Shown: positions 14,848-40,411 of the stretch, in pieces
Layout: each line of letters starts with the position of its first letter
How positions within the stretch are numbered: the stretch's first letter is position 1
Assembly: GCA_945871105.1 (NCBI GenBank)
Contig: CAMBUO010000005.1
Span: 10,217 to 74,216, forward strand
Source of the DNA: an uncultured Clostridia bacterium
GTDB lineage: Bacteria > Bacillota_I > Bacilli_A > RF39 > UBA660
Length of the DNA: 64,000 nt
Reading direction: 5' to 3'
Program-made: the position numbers and the translations under genes
Notes under the pieces: model-generated
The model's database searches: none
What the model was told of the DNA's origin: nothing
Seen by the model: only the letters and a program-made list of their open reading frames with translations

Positions 14848-16244
14848 TGGAAAGTAAAAAGAAAAAAAAGTTTAGATTAGTTGATGCTGTTTTAGCAACG
14901 GTTTGTATTACTTTAGTTGCTGAATCAGTTATGCCAACGGCTGCTATTGGTAATAGTCAGTACTTTTGGTGGATATTTTTAATAATAGCTTTTTGCTTGC
15001 CATATGGAATGATTTCGGCTGAACTTGGAACAACTTATCCAAGTGAAGGTGGAATGTATGACTGGGTAAAAAGAGCTTTTGGACCTAAGTGGGCAAGCCG
15101 TGTAGCTTGGAATTATTGGGTAAATTTCCCACTTTGGATTGCCTCTCTTGCTGTTGCAGTAACTGATGTTGTTATGGGAATATTTGATATTACTTTAAGT
15201 ATTCCAATGTTATTAATACTTCAACTTGGTTATACTTGGTTAGTTTCTTTACTAGGAACGCAAAGAATTGGGGAAAGTAAATGGATAGTTAATATTGGAA
15301 CTTTCTTTAAAATTTTATTCATGGTTGGTCTTGGTGCTTTAGGAATTTATGTTTATTTTAAAACAGGAGAAAGTGCTAATCCTATTAATAGTGCACTTGA
15401 TTTATTACCAACATTTGATTTAGCTGGACTTTCATTCTTATCAGTTATTATCTTTAATTTTTTAGGATTTGAAGTAGTTGCAACTTTTGTTGATGATATG
15501 GATGATCCTAAAAAAGAAATACCTAAAGCTTTAATTGTTGGTGGAGCTTTAATGGCTTTATTCTATATTTTACCAGCAACAGGAATTAATATTGCTATGA
15601 CACTTGAACAAGCTGAAGCAAGTGGAATAACAGAAAGTTTCTTAATTTTATTAACTAAATTAGGATTTGCTCCTGAAGCTATTCGTATTGTAGTAATTGC
15701 AGTTGGTTTAATGTTTATTTATACGATGGTTGCTAATATTGTTTCATGGTCATTTGGTGTAAACTCAGTTGCTAAATATTCAGCTGATGATGGTGGATTA
15801 CCTAAAGTATTTAAAAAGACTAATAAACAAGGTGTACCATATATGGCTTCTATCATGAATGGCGTAGTTGCCTCAGTTATTGTTATCATTGGTATTATTT
15901 TAGGTGAAGTAAGTGAAAGTGCAAGTAACTTATTCTGGACTTTCTTCTCACTTAGTTTAGTTACTTTATTAATTAGTTATATACCTTTATTCTTAGCATT
16001 TAAAAAACTTCGTAAAGTTGACAAAACCGAAAGAGTATATAAAGTACCTGGAAATAATCTTGTTATTAATTTAATGACTTATATTCCATTTGTTTTATTA
16101 ATTTTAGGTGTAATTTTCACTTTATTTGGTGATTTTACTATGGATTATATAACAAGTAATTTACCACTTATAGTTGGTGTTATTGTTTCAATTATAATTC
16201 AAGAAATTTTAGTTTTATCAGTTAAAGATAAAAAAAGTAATTAG
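14847..16244 (+). CDS. aguD: Agmatine/putrescine antiporter-like APC transporter
   Basis: A polytopic APC-type protein. Its start codon overlaps the ptcA stop, and aguA follows 12 nt later. Confidence 0.7.
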   Translation: MESKKKKKFRLVDAVLATVCITLVAESVMPTAAIGNSQYFWWIFLIIAFCLPYGMISAELGTTYPSEGGMYDWVKRAFGPKWASRVAWNYWVNFPLWIASLAVAVTDVVMGIFDITLSIPMLLILQLGYTWLVSLLGTQRIGESKWIVNIGTFFKILFMVGLGALGIYVYFKTGESANPINSALDLLPTFDLAGLSFLSVIIFNFLGFEVVATFVDDMDDPKKEIPKALIVGGALMALFYILPATGINIAMTLEQAEASGITESFLILLTKLGFAPEAIRIVVIAVGLMFIYTMVANIVSWSFGVNSVAKYSADDGGLPKVFKKTNKQGVPYMASIMNGVVASVIVIIGIILGEVSESASNLFWTFFSLSLVTLLISYIPLFLAFKKLRKVDKTERVYKVPGNNLVINLMTYIPFVLLILGVIFTLFGDFTMDYITSNLPLIVGVIVSIIIQEILVLSVKDKKSN

Positions 16245-16256
16245 AAGGAGAAAAGA

Positions 16257-17357
16257 ATGAAAAGATTAGATACAATTCCAAAAGATGATGGTTTCCGTAT
16301 GCCAGGTGAGTTTGAACCTCATCGTGGAAGTTATATTATTTGGCCTGAAAGACCTGATAACTGGCGTTTAGGTGCTAAACCTGCTCAAAAAGTATTTTTA
16401 GAAGTTATTAAAAAAATAAGTAAATATGAACCAATTACCGTTGTTGTTTCCAAAGAACAATATAGTAATGTTTTAAACTTAATTCCTACTAATGGTAATG
16501 TCCGTGTCGTAGAAATGAGTAATAATGATTCATGGATAAGAGATTGTGGAGCTACTTTTGTTGTTAATGATAAAGGTGCTTGTCGAGGCATTGATTGGAG
16601 TTTTAATGCTTGGGGTGGATTAGTTGATGGTTTATATTTTCCTTGGGATCAAGATGATAAAATAGCTAGTAAAATGTGTGAACTTGAAAGAGTTCCAAGA
16701 TATCGTTTAGATGATTTTATTCTTGAAGGTGGAAGTATCCATGTTGATGGAGAAGGAACTTGTATGGTAACAAGTGAATGTTTACTATCAAAAGGAAGAA
16801 ATAGTCATTTAACAAAAAAACAAATTGAAAAAGTTTTATGTGATTATTTAAATTGTAGTAAAGTTTTATGGATTCCAAGAGGTATCTATAATGATGAAAC
16901 TAATGGTCATGTTGATAATATTTGTAACTTTGTTAAACCAGGTGTAGTTGTTTTAGCTTGGACTGATAACAAGAAAGATCCTCAATATGAAATAAGTAAG
17001 GAAGCTTATGATTACTTAGCTAGTCAAACGGATGCTAAAGGTCGTAAATTAGAAATTCATAAATTATTACTTCCAAAACCAATTTTAATTACGAAAGAAG
17101 AAAGTATGGGAGTAGATGCTGTTGATGGAACCTTACCTCGTCAAAAAGGTGATCGTTTAGCTGCAAGTTATGTTAATTATTATACAATTAATGGTGCAGT
17201 TTTAGTTCCAACATTCAACGATCCACATGATAAATTAGCTATAAAAACACTTCAAGAATTATATCCAGATCGTGTTATTGAACCTATATATGCTCGTGAA
17301 ATCTTACTTGGTGGTGGTAATATTCATTGTATTACTCAACAAGTACCACGTGGTTAA
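16257..17357 (+). CDS. aguA: Agmatine deiminase
   Basis: [28 protein letters not shown] and the catalytic-Cys segment [11 protein letters not shown] are all present. Confidence 0.85.
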
Positions 17358-35275: not shown

Positions 35276-37108
35276 ATGTTAAACAAAGAAATAAAATTAA
35301 ATAAATATTTAATAATCTTTTTATTACTAGTTTATGTAATAACCATAGGTTTATATACTTCTTATGCATATTACGAAGTAAGTGTTATAAAAAATGGGGT
35401 AGTAGTAATTAAAACAGCAACCATTGATATAACAACAAATATAGTTGATCAAGAAAATAATACATTCACTATTCCTACTAATTCTAATATCACAGTTACA
35501 GTTAATTTAACAACCGAATTAACAAATGAAATAGGTTATAAAATGTATTATGAAGTAATAAGTGGAATTTCACCCTTTAATGTTACATCAACTACAACTT
35601 TTACAGATGATATTGTCGAAGCCAATATGACTTCTTCAAAGCAACTACAATTTACTTTTACTAATCTAGGATCAAATGATTTAACGATTAAACTAGGTAC
35701 CAAAGGAGGACTAGCTAACTATCCAATTCCTTTAGATGAAGTATTAGAATTAAAAGTAAATACTACTTTAAGCGTACCAATTAAAAATGCAATCATTGAA
35801 AGTGTTAATAATCCAAGTGATTCATCATGCAAAACTAAAGTCGAAGAAGATGGCATAACTTATATTTCTGGAACTAAAACTTGCATTAATTTTAACTATG
35901 TTTGGTATTCAGGAAAACTATGGAGAATAACAGCTATTTACCCAGATGGAACAATGAAAATGATAACCGATGATCAAATTACAGCTATATCTTATGGTAG
36001 TAATGTTAACTTCTATACTGATAACGAAAATAAATCTTATATGTATCAATGGTTAAATGAAGATTTTTTAGATACCTTATATAACTATGAAAATATTATT
36101 GTTACAGATAGTAAATGGAATAGCATGACAACCAGTATTATTTCAACCAAAATAACGGAAGGAGCTGAAGGAGTAACAACAATAATTTCGCCCGTAGGCT
36201 TATTAAATAGTTATGAATACTATATGAGTTATAAAAATACCAGTTATGGAAGTGGTTATTTATATATACACTATTATTGGTGGCTTTTGAATCCATATAA
36301 CACCTCGAACGTCTGGTATGTCCTCGGCGACGGTAACGGCCACGGCGCTAGTCCGACTGATACGGTCGGGGGTCGTCCATCTATTAATCTAAAATCTGGA
36401 ATCCAATTATCTGGCGGATCAGGCACAAAAACCGATCCCTACACGATAGCAGGAGATAAAGAAGAAGTAACAGCCGGAACAACCTTACTAAATACCAGAA
36501 GTAGTGGTGAATATGTAAATTTTAATAATGAATTATATCGAATCGTAAGTATTGAAAATAATATAACGAAGATAAATAAAAATGATTGTGTAAGAGATAC
36601 CAGTAATACTGTGTTAACGAAAAAATTTTCAACAAGTGTAACCTATGGAGGAGGAACGAGCGATGATTACTGGGATTATTATTTGAATAATACTTGGTAT
36701 AATGCCCTTGATTCTGCATCTCAAAATATGATAGTCGAAAGTACCTATTATATAGGAACAAATACAGGTAGTACAGGTTATAAAGCATCAATATGTGCTA
36801 CGGCTAGTAATACCGTAACCACCAAAGATTGTGAAAAGACAACGAGTACATGGACAGGATTAGTCGGATTACCAAGATATGGCGAAATGTTTGCCAGTCG
36901 ACAAGGAAGTGAATATTCATCATCAAGTAATATGTGGTTAATGAATTCATATAACACCTTTCAGGTCTGGTATGTCAGCGGCGGTTACAGCGACAACCTT
37001 AGTCCGGCTAATGCGCGCGAGGGTCGTCCATCCATTAATCTAAAATCTAGTATCAAAATAACTGGTGGAAAAGGAACTAAAGATAACCCATTTGAAATCA
37101 GTGAATAA
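35276..37108 (+). CDS. Membrane-anchored surface protein with two lectin-like (DUF6273/DUF1566-like) modules
   Basis: An N-terminal anchor is followed by two modules. They end WWLLNPYNTSNVWYV...GGRPSINLKSGIQLSGGSGTKTDPYTI and MWLMNSYNTFQVWYV...EGRPSINLKSSIKITGGKGTKDNPFEI. Confidence 0.7.
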   Translation: MLNKEIKLNKYLIIFLLLVYVITIGLYTSYAYYEVSVIKNGVVVIKTATIDITTNIVDQENNTFTIPTNSNITVTVNLTTELTNEIGYKMYYEVISGISPFNVTSTTTFTDDIVEANMTSSKQLQFTFTNLGSNDLTIKLGTKGGLANYPIPLDEVLELKVNTTLSVPIKNAIIESVNNPSDSSCKTKVEEDGITYISGTKTCINFNYVWYSGKLWRITAIYPDGTMKMITDDQITAISYGSNVNFYTDNENKSYMYQWLNEDFLDTLYNYENIIVTDSKWNSMTTSIISTKITEGAEGVTTIISPVGLLNSYEYYMSYKNTSYGSGYLYIHYYWWLLNPYNTSNVWYVLGDGNGHGASPTDTVGGRPSINLKSGIQLSGGSGTKTDPYTIAGDKEEVTAGTTLLNTRSSGEYVNFNNELYRIVSIENNITKINKNDCVRDTSNTVLTKKFSTSVTYGGGTSDDYWDYYLNNTWYNALDSASQNMIVESTYYIGTNTGSTGYKASICATASNTVTTKDCEKTTSTWTGLVGLPRYGEMFASRQGSEYSSSSNMWLMNSYNTFQVWYVSGGYSDNLSPANAREGRPSINLKSSIKITGGKGTKDNPFEISE

Positions 37109-37429
37109 TATATGTCAAAATATGTCAAATATTTAAAACTTAATTTTTATTAATTGACTAAGTTATCTATTAATAGTATGATTATAATGAGTCCATGATA
37201 AGTAAAATAATCGAAATTTAAATAATATTTAACTCACTGTTTTACAAAGTATTATTTATTAAATGGAGGTGATTTTCTTATAGTTATGAAATTAATTCTT
37301 ATGTAATTGTTTTTATTACTGAATTAATGTTAATTATTTTTAAAATAATTAATGCATAACGTAAGATAAAAATTTGCAGGTAGAAATATCTGCTTTTTTA
37401 TGTTATAATACCTAATCAGGAGTGGGGTT

Positions 37430-38035
37430 ATGAATAAAGATTGGTTATCTAATAAAGAAGTTTTAAAGTATTTGAAATTATATATTCAAGGTAATTTAGA
37501 ATATCGTGAATTGTTAATTATGAAAACTATTCCGTATGTTGAATATCTTATTAAAGAAAGATTTTGTGATTTTTTAAATCAAAATGGAATGTTTAGTTAT
37601 GAAGATTTAGTTGATGTTGGTATTATCGGACTTATGAAAGCAATCGATAGATGTAATTTGCATAAAGAATTTAATTTTTATTCTTATGCATCTCGTTTTA
37701 TTAAAAATGAAATAATAAAATATTTACAATCATGGAAAGAAAGTTTAAGTTTTCAAGAATTAAAACAACAAGAATTAGTTAGTTCTTTTAATCTTGAAGA
37801 TGATTATTTAAAAAAAGAATTATTAAAAATTTTAGAAAATAATTATTCTATTTTAAGTACTCGTGAAGAATTAGTTATTAAGTATTTATTTGGAATAGAT
37901 GGTTCTGCTTATAAAGAAAAAGAATTAGCTGAAGCGTTTGAATGTACTCGGGAAAATATAAATATTATAAAAAGAAATAGTTTAAGAAAGTTAAGAGATA
38001 TGTTACTTGATTATAATTATGATTATCATCTTTAG
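37430..38035 (+). CDS. Sigma-70 family RNA polymerase sigma factor (regions 2 and 4 only)
   Basis: A region 2-like segment DLVDVGIIGLMKAIDRC...YASRFIKNEI and a region 4 HTH segment KELAEAFECTRENINIIKRNSLRKLR are present. The protein is about 200 aa. Confidence 0.7.
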   Translation: MNKDWLSNKEVLKYLKLYIQGNLEYRELLIMKTIPYVEYLIKERFCDFLNQNGMFSYEDLVDVGIIGLMKAIDRCNLHKEFNFYSYASRFIKNEIIKYLQSWKESLSFQELKQQELVSSFNLEDDYLKKELLKILENNYSILSTREELVIKYLFGIDGSAYKEKELAEAFECTRENINIIKRNSLRKLRDMLLDYNYDYHL

Positions 38036-38127: not shown

Positions 38128-39405
38128 ATGGAAGAGAATAAAAAAGTAAAAAAAAGAAAAAAGAAAAAGATAATTAAAGCACCTAAAGTTCAAACTATTT
38201 TTTGTTTAATTAGTTTATTATTTGTACTTGGTTGTTGCTTTTATTATGGAAGTCGTCTTATTAAATATTATAAAATTTATAATCCTAAGTCTGAAAGTGG
38301 AGAAACTTTAGTTAATTTAGCATCTTCTATTATAACTGGTTCTAGTATTGTTTATGAAGGGGATGGTCTTTATATAAGTAGTGGTAATTATTTATATAAG
38401 GGATCTGATGTTAATAATTATATTTTGGTTGATAATATGTTATTTCGAATTATTCGTATTAATGCTGATAAAACAATGGAAATTATTTTAGATGATTATA
38501 TTAATAAAAAAGAATGGGATACGGATATTAAAGATTTTTCGGAATCTAGTCTTTCTAAGTATTTAGAAGATAAATTTTTAAATATTATTGATAAAGATTT
38601 ATTAGTTAAATCTAGTGTTTGTACGGATACTATTCCTGAATTAAGTGAAGTAACTTGTGAAAAAACTTCTAATGATACTTATGTTAAATTATTAGGTATT
38701 AGTGATTTTTTAAATAGTATTAGTGATGATAAAACGTATTTAATTAAAGATAAAGAATATTTATGGCTTACTAATCATGGTAAAACTAATGTATGGCATA
38801 CTAGTGGAATTAGTGTTGCTAATAGTAGTCCTACTAAAATGTATGGAGTTAAACCAGTTCTTACTTTAAAAAATTCAACAGTTTTATTAAGTGGTGATGG
38901 AACAAAGGATAACCCTTATCAAATACAAGAGAATAAACAAGCTATTAAAGTTGGTACTTATTTAGATATTAATGATGAAATTTATATTGTTTATGATATA
39001 GGTGATAATTACTATAAAGTAGAAAGTGATAAAGTTTTAAAAAATATTATTTTTGATAAAACTAGTAATGAATATAGTAATTCTTCTTTAAAAAAATATT
39101 TAGATAATTATGTAGAAAGTTTAGGTATAGATAAGTTATTAGTTGATGTTTCTTTTCAAGATAATACTAGTAAAATAGGTCTTTTATCTCTTGATGATTT
39201 TAAATTTAATGATAGTTTAAAAAATTATTATTTAAGTGATACTAAAGATAAAGAAGTATATTTATATAATGGTAGTTTATTAACTAGTAAGGTTGATGTT
39301 TCAAGAAATGTTCGTTTTGGTTTAGGAATAACAAAAGATTTAAAGATTATAAGTGGAAATGGTAGTAAAATAGCACCATATATTGTGGAGGGTAAAGATG
39401 CGTAA
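38128..39405 (+). CDS. Membrane-anchored surface protein, paralog of 35276..37108
   Basis: A basic N-terminus and one TM segment lead into a module ending YLWLTNHGKTNVWHT...GVKPVLTLKNSTVLLSGDGTKDNPYQI. A second, degenerate module follows. Confidence 0.65.
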   Translation: MEENKKVKKRKKKKIIKAPKVQTIFCLISLLFVLGCCFYYGSRLIKYYKIYNPKSESGETLVNLASSIITGSSIVYEGDGLYISSGNYLYKGSDVNNYILVDNMLFRIIRINADKTMEIILDDYINKKEWDTDIKDFSESSLSKYLEDKFLNIIDKDLLVKSSVCTDTIPELSEVTCEKTSNDTYVKLLGISDFLNSISDDKTYLIKDKEYLWLTNHGKTNVWHTSGISVANSSPTKMYGVKPVLTLKNSTVLLSGDGTKDNPYQIQENKQAIKVGTYLDINDEIYIVYDIGDNYYKVESDKVLKNIIFDKTSNEYSNSSLKKYLDNYVESLGIDKLLVDVSFQDNTSKIGLLSLDDFKFNDSLKNYYLSDTKDKEVYLYNGSLLTSKVDVSRNVRFGLGITKDLKIISGNGSKIAPYIVEGKDA

Positions 39406-40411
39406 GACAACGATTTTATTTATTATAATTGATTTATGTGCTATTAGTTGTTTTGTATTGTTTTATGGACCTTTTGAAAAGTTTCGAAATATAATTGTTA
39501 ATACTGCTATGGTAACTAAATCTCATCAATATATTGCTTATACTTTTTATAGTGAAGATACTGTTCAAAAGATTATGGATTTAAATAAATTCATTCCTGT
39601 TTCAGAAAAAATTGATTTAAATGATATTGTTATTAATACAGGGGAAAAAGATACTTATGATAATGAATATGATGAAGCTATTTTAAAAAGAGATAATAAG
39701 GATGATAGTTATAAATATTTAAATATTAAAGTAGGTAAATATAATGCTCATTTAGTTGCTATTTATGAACCAGAAAAAGTTAGATTAATTACTAGTAAGA
39801 CTTTTAATACCGGATCAGGTCAAGAAACAGTTCCAAAGATGTGTAGCCGTTATGGTGGGGTTGTTTGTATTAATGGTGGAGGTTTTAAAGATTTAGATGG
39901 TTGGGGTAGTGATACACCAATTGGTTATGTTATTAAAGATGGTAAAGTAATTTGGGCTGAAGATAATTCTAAACAAGATATTATTGGTATTACGAATGAT
40001 AATAAACTATTGCTTATCAATGCAACAGGGGAAGAAGCTATTGAGATGGGGATGCGTGATGGTGTGCAATTTGGACCATTCTTAATTGTTAATGGTGAAA
40101 GTATAAAATATAATTCTTCTGTTGGTGGTTATGATAGGGCTGCTCGTGTTGCTATTGCTCAAAGAAAAGATGGCGTAATTCTATTCTTAGCAACTGAAGG
40201 AACTCATGGAAGTGGACCAACTATGAAAGAAGTAGTTGAAACTTTAGAATTATATGGGGCTTATAATGCAGCTAATCTTGATGGTGGTACTTCTAGTCAA
40301 ATGGTAATTGAAGGAAAACTTGTAAACAATCCTAAAAACGTCTTTGGCCAAAGTGTTAGTGGTGGAAGACGAGTAGTTACCGGATTTGCTTTAATTCCTG
40401 ATGCTGAATAA
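39398..40411 (+). CDS. Phosphodiester glycosidase (DUF2233) family protein, membrane-anchored
   Basis: VCINGGGF, GPFLIVNG, AIAQRKDG and NLDGGTSSQM are present. A GGAGGG RBS precedes the ATG at 39398, which overlaps the upstream stop codon. Confidence 0.7.
   Translation: MRKTTILFIIIDLCAISCFVLFYGPFEKFRNIIVNTAMVTKSHQYIAYTFYSEDTVQKIMDLNKFIPVSEKIDLNDIVINTGEKDTYDNEYDEAILKRDNKDDSYKYLNIKVGKYNAHLVAIYEPEKVRLITSKTFNTGSGQETVPKMCSRYGGVVCINGGGFKDLDGWGSDTPIGYVIKDGKVIWAEDNSKQDIIGITNDNKLLLINATGEEAIEMGMRDGVQFGPFLIVNGESIKYNSSVGGYDRAARVAIAQRKDGVILFLATEGTHGSGPTMKEVVETLELYGAYNAANLDGGTSSQMVIEGKLVNNPKNVFGQSVSGGRRVVTGFALIPDAE

Follow-up and report, generated by a model that had tools for sequence, protein, structure and literature searches.

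What could have placed two short GC-rich islands in a single gene of otherwise AT-rich DNA is the question raised by a stretch of 64,000 nucleotides from an uncultured Clostridia bacterium (GenBank assembly GCA_945871105.1, contig CAMBUO010000005.1, positions 10,217 to 74,216 of the forward strand), the whole of which is called the window below. The islands lie in a forward-strand gene at 35276-37108, encoding a protein of 610 amino acids (aa), and an initial annotation, made from the letters alone, had interpreted them as variable regions (VRs) of a diversity-generating retroelement (DGR) that is remote or lost. In DGRs, a template repeat (TR) is transcribed, the reverse transcriptase (RT) together with Avd makes cDNA and misincorporates opposite template adenines, and this cDNA replaces the VR. 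Cassettes found beside homologs of the gene, together with mismatches enriched at template adenines, supported that interpretation: the islands are almost certainly VRs written by a DGR, and the best overall explanation, which we regard as probable, is that the gene is a DGR target whose VRs were written in trans from a remote TR and RT.

Composition of the islands and the lineage template

The results showed that in the window, whose GC content is 24.8%, only six stretches reach at least 50% GC in any 60-nt window, and the islands contain its two highest-GC 60-mers, at 36278-36455 (maximum 0.68) and 36947-37050 (maximum 0.63), while the remaining four stretches peak at no more than 0.52. The positions and GC richness first assigned to the islands thus hold, as does the preference for G/C-ending codons: GC at codon positions 1/2/3 is 0.63/0.58/0.69 in the first island and 0.58/0.52/0.64 in the second, in comparison to 0.31/0.39/0.18 in the gene outside them, and adenine makes up 19% to 21% of the islands in comparison to 40% of the remainder. 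Both islands occupy the equivalent place of two repeated modules, from VW.V to G.RPSINLKS, as had been claimed, the first module ending in ...WWLLNPYNTSNVWYV...GGRPSINLKS and the second in ...MWLMNSYNTFQVWYV...EGRPSINLKS; the codon alignment also bore out the difference of one codon between their lengths. A paralog of 425 aa on the same strand (38128-39405) served as an internal control that is not diversified. It carries the same module motif (27% identity, E=2e-16 by BLASTP) in AT-rich codons, as the initial annotation had pointed out, with GC of about 0.30 at 38760-38880, and is without a match to the template profile described below. Since the paralogous module uses AT-rich codons, the GC bias of the islands is not imposed by the protein sequence.

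To relate the islands to a template, we used the TR shared by two cassettes of the same lineage (L014 and L016, described in the next section), which is not the TR of the window's own genome, and compared mismatches at template adenines and at other sites by the Fisher test. This template reads ACC TCG AAC GTC TGG AAC GTC AAC AAC AAC GGT AAC GGC in its first half and AAC AAC AAT AGT CCG ACT AAT ACG AAT GGC GGT CGT in the remainder, followed by TAGAG, and is nearly what had been predicted beforehand from the VRs alone. VR1 (36302-36376, forward strand, 75 nt colinear with the template) differs from it at 14 of the 26 adenine sites and at 3 of the 49 other sites (p=6e-6), and VR2 (36956-37027, forward strand, 72 nt colinear with the template and one codon shorter than VR1) at 13/24 and 8/48, respectively (p=2e-3). 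Over seven VRs of the lineage, the variable columns include 25 of the 26 adenine positions and 18 of the 49 others (p=3e-7). A DNA profile built from template and spacer and run with nhmmer found 36299-36376 (E=1.2e-7) and 36955-37025 (E=0.0026) in the window and nothing else. The earlier proposal that the two islands differ in a manner compatible with template adenines was thus substantiated against a template of conspecific cassettes. One pair that had seemed to speak against it, TCG/TTT, for which a TAA triplet in the template had been thought necessary, corresponds to TCG in the lineage template and is a non-adenine change, VR2 having three such changes at its 5' edge.

The lineage template itself has a GC content of 49% and carries C in the third position of its codons. 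The GC richness of the islands is explained because its C, G and T are copied faithfully and replacement of adenines adds GC; only one NNC-to-NNT change is found in VR1. The missing codon of VR2 falls where the template reads AAC AAC AAC and VR2 has the two codons AGC GGC (36977-36982, forward strand), that is, within an (AAC)3 run. In-frame indels are also found in the VRs of other alleles, several of them in or beside AAC-rich stretches of the template, and slippage is therefore suggested. Changes of VR length are common among the homologs, and they comprise a five-codon duplication of a GGT-NNC-NNC-NNC-NNC unit (VR1 of L017 and P0015; L017:430-520), a five-residue deletion (VR1 of P0011), a two-codon deletion (VR1 of L005), and a two-codon insertion (VR2 of L017).

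The non-adenine departures of VR1 are informative about the template that may have been used in this strain. All three recur in VR2 with the same base (codon 6 as NNT, codon 22 as NNC, and codon 23 as G.G), for which the chance is about 2e-4 by a rough estimate that assumes the sites to be independent, and the NNC of codon 22 matches the second TR haplotype of the lineage. Because every such departure of VR1 recurs in VR2, both VRs appear to have been copied from one strain-private template variant, and the shared states point to a single strain-specific template that would have written both. The predicted template of the window's own genome would read ACCTCGAACGTCTGGAATGTCAACAACAACGGTAAC(A/G)GCAACAACAATAGTCCGACTAATACGAACGAGGGTCGT followed by TAGAGC, with T at position 3 of codon 6 and G at position 3 of codon 23.

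Homology to the template stops exactly where the 3' flank of VR1 starts, and in the cassettes the template runs on as TAGAG. The VR1 flank (CCATCTATTAATCTAAAATCT, 36377-36397, forward strand) is coding (PSINLKS) and the VR2 flank (CCATCCATTAATCTAAAATCT, 37028-37048, forward strand) is 96% identical to it over 28 nt, though the modules have otherwise diverged. Directly 3' of nearly every VR recovered from three lineages there is a coding block of 14 nt, ATTAATCT(A/T)AAATC, with ATAAATCT... in one VR. The VR 3' flank (ATTAATCTAAAATC) is a candidate recognition element resembling the initiation of mutagenic homing (IMH) site.

Cassettes beside homologs and lineage copies of the gene

The check on the DGR interpretation, namely a search for a DGR-type RT and a template repeat, was made through homologs, and it revealed a TR, an Avd and an RT directly downstream of homologs and of lineage copies of the target. 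In three contigs from Hadza gut assemblies carrying a 65%-identical homolog (L006, L007 and L008), a 78-nt AAC-rich TR lies 124 nt past the stop codon of the target and is followed by open reading frames (ORFs) of 98 aa and 109 aa and by a 320-aa RVT_1 protein. Over the 56-nt core of this type, the TR differs from VR1 at 10 positions and from VR2 at 8, every one of them at a TR adenine and none elsewhere; in a related human-gut contig (L013), mismatches fall on 11 of the 26 adenines and on 0 of the 52 other sites over the full 78 nt. Since all VR-TR mismatches in these contigs are at TR adenines, a single template feeds the two VRs of one gene.

With the L006 RT as query, the same cassette was located beside 86% to 87%-identical copies of the target in the window's own lineage, in L010 (sample ERZ28573915), L014 (ERZ28573899), L016 (ERZ28573940) and L017 (ERZ27233186). 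The order is target copy, TR, a MutS-like (MSL) ORF resembling MutS domain I, avd and RT gene, which matches 'Architecture D' (MSL + avd + RT) of Wu et al. 2018 (PMC5758913), and the RT of the lineage carries the motifs SIGSVCSQ (IGxxxSQ) and YMDD. In these cassettes, an ORF of 109 aa aligns over its whole length with the NCBIfam model NF033474 DivGenRetAVD at E=6e-6, a score that falls short of the curated cut-off, and it also matches PHROG 3206, annotated as 'Avd protein of DGR' (E=1.5e-3). The TR takes the form ACCTCGAACGTCTGGAAYGTCAACAACAACGGTAAC...GGTCGT, then TAGAG; a second haplotype, found in L017, differs from that of L014 and L016 at codons 1, 13, 16 and 20-22. Many of the contigs with an RT are short because assemblies often break at the TR/VR repeat.

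Not all of these cassettes are in the same state. The RT of L010 (10001-10903) has an in-frame deletion of 22 residues that removes YMDD and should abolish its activity, and the template of this contig (9063-9137) has CTC and TTC where the other lineage templates have AAC, which are adenine-only changes, along with states of the second haplotype; L010 is either a decaying DGR or a chimera of VR and TR created in assembly. In the RT of L014 (1256-2203), SIGSVCSQ has become SIESVCSE, a change that may impair the enzyme, and seven residues are deleted.

The region between TR and accessory ORF (L016:12041-12290, L010:9138-9390, L006:12089-12345 and L012:335-600) contains the conserved blocks TTAGAGC, AAACAGC, TTCCTTGTT, AAATGGAGATGT and ACTCGCATTAA, and an inverted repeat TTGCAATGTAT...ATATTGCAAGG is found in the spacer of L006, L010, L013, L014 and L016. 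These blocks are preserved across lineages whose RTs are 70% to 78% identical, and judging from such conservation the region probably acts as a structured spacer RNA for priming. A search with a pattern of spacer motifs gave one human-gut contig (L013) among metagenome contigs, no match in viral contigs, and none in the window. A pattern of the VR/TR backbone gave no match in viral contigs and, in a collection of 185,579 species genomes, only three chance matches in unrelated high-GC genomes, which shows that the lineage of the window is either missed by the pattern or missing from the collection.

A further feature of the cassettes is a poly-G run of 7 to 11 G at the 5' end of the MutS-like ORF, between template and avd, in every cassette examined. 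Its length is 7 in L006 (12352), 8 in L013 (678, reverse strand), 9 in L016 (12296), 10 in L014 (649), 11 in L010 (9393) and 8 in L017 (1739), and the run is interrupted (G6AG4) in L011 (265) and L012; the L006-type run is G7 in three independent assemblies. The MutS-like ORF overlaps avd, which in turn overlaps the RT gene. Two overlapping start codons are found at the MutS-like ORF, and only L010 (G11) and L013 (G8) are without an in-frame start. About 200 nt 5' of the target gene of a 63%-identical homolog (L009:9724-9800), around which there is no RT within 10 kb, a tiny ORF was likewise seen to contain a run of 11 G. The window contains no run of at least six G or C. As a lead, the poly-G run is a candidate slipped-strand contingency tract that might make the mutator phase-variable, bearing in mind that homopolymer lengths in metagenome assemblies are unreliable. 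No paper centred on DGRs together with phase variation by homopolymers came up in a literature search. It is conceivable, though improbable in our estimate, that a cellular DGR gated by poly-G slippage serves two paralogous surface lectins with two VRs each, one of them in trans, and that slippage in (AAC)n runs creates the in-frame lengths of the VRs; if this were true, phase-variable mutagenesis would explain VRs that are constant among close strains yet scrambled between alleles.

Proposed writing in trans and its alternatives

The window's gene is chromosomal and lies among housekeeping genes in an order that is syntenic across strains. In two contigs with the gene order of the window (L001 and L005), whose flanks are 97% to 100% identical to it, there is no cassette within 15 to 20 kb. 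The cassette locus has different neighbours, with Der, SpoVIF, DAGK, Big_2 and ABC/FtsX upstream and MurJ and BacA downstream; the target gene alone is common to it and the window, and homology ends within a few nt of the ORF boundaries. One sample yielded both L005, with its synteny to the window, and the cassette locus L010, and between the target copies at both loci the first ~300 nt are homogenised (95% to 99%) while the remainder is 77% to 92% identical. From these data we infer two paralogous loci in one genome, of which the window's copy would be the non-adjacent target. The target gene is furthermore an island of divergence: against L001 and L005 (window 35470-37260), identity is 83% to 92% across the whole ORF, in comparison to 97% to 100% over the 10 kb to either side; straight after the stop codon it is back at 98%. 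Alleles of the cassette-adjacent locus and of the window's locus are about equally distant (89% to 93%), which points to exchange between the paralogs by gene conversion or by replacement of alleles.

By the proposed mechanism, an AAC-rich TR would be transcribed at the cassette locus elsewhere on the chromosome and copied to cDNA by the DGR RT and Avd with errors opposite template adenines. The cDNA would then replace the VR, so that the C, G and T of the template are kept, giving NNC codons and GC richness, and the adenine positions are randomised. Both VRs of the window would then most probably have been written in trans from a single TR at another place in its genome. We consider it rather likely that the window's genome carries such a cassette and that retrohoming took place at the window's locus itself; that writing persists there today is a more tentative proposal, to which we would give somewhat less than even weight.

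Several observations weigh against writing in trans or against its persistence. The window contains no RT, Avd or TR, as had been stated at the outset: the lineage RT profile gave a best E of 0.34 against its six-frame ORFs, and neither a third VR copy nor a template was found in it by blastn-short, by an adenine-aware scan, or by the nhmmer profile of template and spacer. Because there is no RT in the window, its gene cannot count as a complete DGR locus, and no contig joins the cassette locus and the window's locus. In VR2, six positions fit neither a known TR haplotype nor a TR adenine, in addition to the 3-nt deletion. No hairpin was detected 3' of the VRs beyond shuffled controls (z-scores of -0.6 to +1.0). 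Lesions are found in two of five lineage RTs (L010 and L014), while those of L016, P0126 and P0130 look intact. The VRs beside cassettes often carry states of the other TR haplotype, from which it follows that recombination reshuffles alleles faster than they are rewritten. In two clusters at 90%, alleles from different contigs carry identical VR1 and VR2, so these alleles do not display ongoing diversification, and in what was a small sample no two copies were found that agree in scaffold but differ in their VRs.

An alternative is that the VRs are fossil or imported, having been written at the cassette-adjacent copy and moved by duplication or gene conversion, or that the cassette has been lost or is dead, so that no retrohoming occurs at the window's gene and its VRs slowly decay. 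We judge this to be less likely than writing in trans, though by no means negligible. It accords with the divergence of the whole gene, VRs and rest alike, at 83% to 92% between flanks of 97% to 100%, with the equal distance of the alleles of the two loci and their homogenised 5' end, and with homology to the cassette-adjacent copy that ends so close to the ORF boundaries; because the whole gene diverges and the loci are equally distant, differences of VRs between strains could reflect allele exchange and not rewriting in place. The identical VRs within the 90% clusters, the damaged RTs of L010 and L014, and the non-adenine changes and deletion of VR2 also fit it. However, any decay has been small, as the islands keep a GC3 of 0.64 to 0.69 despite a genomic GC3 of 0.18, with very little change toward AT and the single NNC-to-NNT change of VR1. 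Conservation of the 3' flank extends to both VRs, the lineage has RTs that are intact (L016, L017 and P0126), and in L005, at the same locus as the window's gene, VR1 and VR2 carry states of different TR haplotypes, as separate writing events predict.

Two explanations that dispense with a retroelement altogether were considered, and each appears very improbable. A recombination patch from a higher-GC donor, the alternative raised in the initial annotation, would account for an island GC of about 2.5 times the genome average, but it is not needed. The lineage itself has an AAC-rich template of the same backbone, embedded in AT-rich DNA, and the differences from it are adenine-specific. All homologs examined, those of the 65%-identical lineage included, are GC-rich in these two short blocks, and the backbone pattern gave only the three chance matches in the species genomes. 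The donor patch was rejected for these reasons. Under the second explanation, ligand-binding loops would be subject to diversifying selection or to some other local process of hypermutation, and the codon bias would arise from amino-acid preference; this would suit VR residues that are surface-loop-like and rich in N, S, Y, G and D. Yet the paralog has the same motif in AT-rich codons, the codons vary at their first two positions but keep C at the third, and the variable columns coincide with template adenines (25/26), for which reasons an explanation by selection alone was also rejected. The preferred reading thus remains that of DGR-written VRs with a remote TR and RT.

The target protein and known systems

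From the ORF, Pfam and an AlphaFold2 (AF2) model, the target comprises an N-terminal membrane anchor, a beta-sandwich domain, and two tandem DUF6273 modules, each ending in a VR. The predicted anchor helix (aa 10-35; 35303-35380, forward strand) is hydrophobic (YLIIFLLLVYVITIGLY) and is assigned as helix by DSSP in the AF2 model, and it would place the protein at the cell surface. The Pfam match to DUF6273 (PF19789; E=2e-6, 28.2 bits in comparison to a gathering cut-off of 23.5) covers aa 252-374 (36029-36397, forward strand) and profile positions 34-172 of 172, its end lying just past VR1, which thus sits at the C-terminal end of the match. The DUF1566-type domain first suggested was not borne out, DUF6273 being the sole match of a Pfam scan at E of at most 0.01. 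Modelling had also been proposed as a check on a lectin fold, and it gave a divided answer. The full-length AF2 model (predicted local distance difference test, pLDDT, 69.5) matches phage DUF6273 proteins (Foldseek, E down to 3e-8, probability 1.0), while a fold search of the PDB with the full model, dominated by the N-terminal beta-sandwich, gave no significant match, and a model of a single module was too poor for use (pLDDT 41). That the modules adopt a C-type-lectin fold is accordingly suggested by analogy with the literature on DUF6273.

The protein has 1270 homologs in gut metagenomes and in metagenome-assembled genomes labelled Bacilli or Erysipelotrichaceae. In an alignment of the 15 closest (73% to 88% identity), nearly all variation falls in two blocks that coincide with the islands, with the consensus VWxVxxxGxGxxxSPxxTxGGRPSINLKS, so the concentration of variation that had been anticipated among strains was observed. 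A small sigma-70-family factor with regions 2 and 4 (37430-38035) is flanked by the target and the paralog, and a NAGPA phosphodiester glycosidase (39383-40411) is next in order. This arrangement is kept in L001 and L005 and might represent a regulon of surface proteins. A strain-variable restriction-modification island follows the NAGPA gene in L001. It is an insertion of ~2 kb (15287-17201), placed before the next gene and absent from the window at ~40487, with genes for a HinfI-family restriction enzyme and an N6/N4 DNA methyltransferase.

The finding does not change the understanding of the DGR mechanism, which is known, and both DUF6273 targets and remote targets are already published. 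It adds to the cellular DGR targets a chromosomal, membrane-anchored DUF6273 protein with two VRs in an uncultured gut Bacilli lineage of 25% GC, the domain having been described until now mainly on phages. Composition alone can flag such a target, by short NNC- and GC-rich islands at equivalent module positions of an AT-rich gene, even with the retroelement tens of kb or more away, and this may be useful because the standard tools for finding DGRs take the RT as their starting point, so that remote targets often escape them. For DGR specialists, the population picture may be of interest, with a gene that is an island of divergence, alleles exchanged between loci, a polymorphic template, lesions in RTs, and VRs constant within clones.

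In published systems of gut Firmicutes phages, DUF6273 is a C-type-lectin-like DGR target with its VR at the C-terminus, as in the nd4/nd12 tentaclins (PMC10743442) and in the Faecalibacterium prophages Lelie, CP11, Roos and Pioen (PMC11792537). The window's gene resembles these in its Pfam domain, C-terminal VR, AAC-rich template, adenine mutagenesis and AF2 match. It differs from them in that it is chromosomal, among housekeeping genes and syntenic across strains, in that its product is predicted to be membrane-anchored and is not a tail or receptor-binding protein, and in that two tandem modules, each with its own VR, go with a single template and no cassette nearby. The paradigm of the mechanism is the DGR of Bordetella phage BPP-1 (Mtd, Avd, TR, Brt), in which a lectin-fold protein has its C-terminal VR rewritten by adenine-specific mutagenic retrohoming; the lineage cassettes likewise encode an RT with IGxxxSQ and YMDD as well as an Avd-like ORF. 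Unlike in BPP-1, the genes here are arranged as target-TR-MSL-avd-RT, the homology of TR and VR breaks off at GGTCGT where BPP-1 has a GC-rich IMH/IMH* pair, and no hairpin is detectable 3' of the VR. The cellular DGRs with remote targets offer a further comparison. Among 372 DGRs surveyed by Wu et al. 2018 (PMC5758913), 45 have non-adjacent targets, and most of these are not from phages. In contrast to Treponema denticola TvpA and the Legionella DGR, the target here is DUF6273 and not of the FGE-sulfatase or DUF1566-type C-type-lectin kind, and target and cassette are proposed to reside, at a distance, in one genome. Like those systems (TvpA; Legionella DGR with MSL; PMC5758913), however, it is non-phage, its lineage cassette consists of MSL, avd and RT, and its TR would serve targets distant from the RT.

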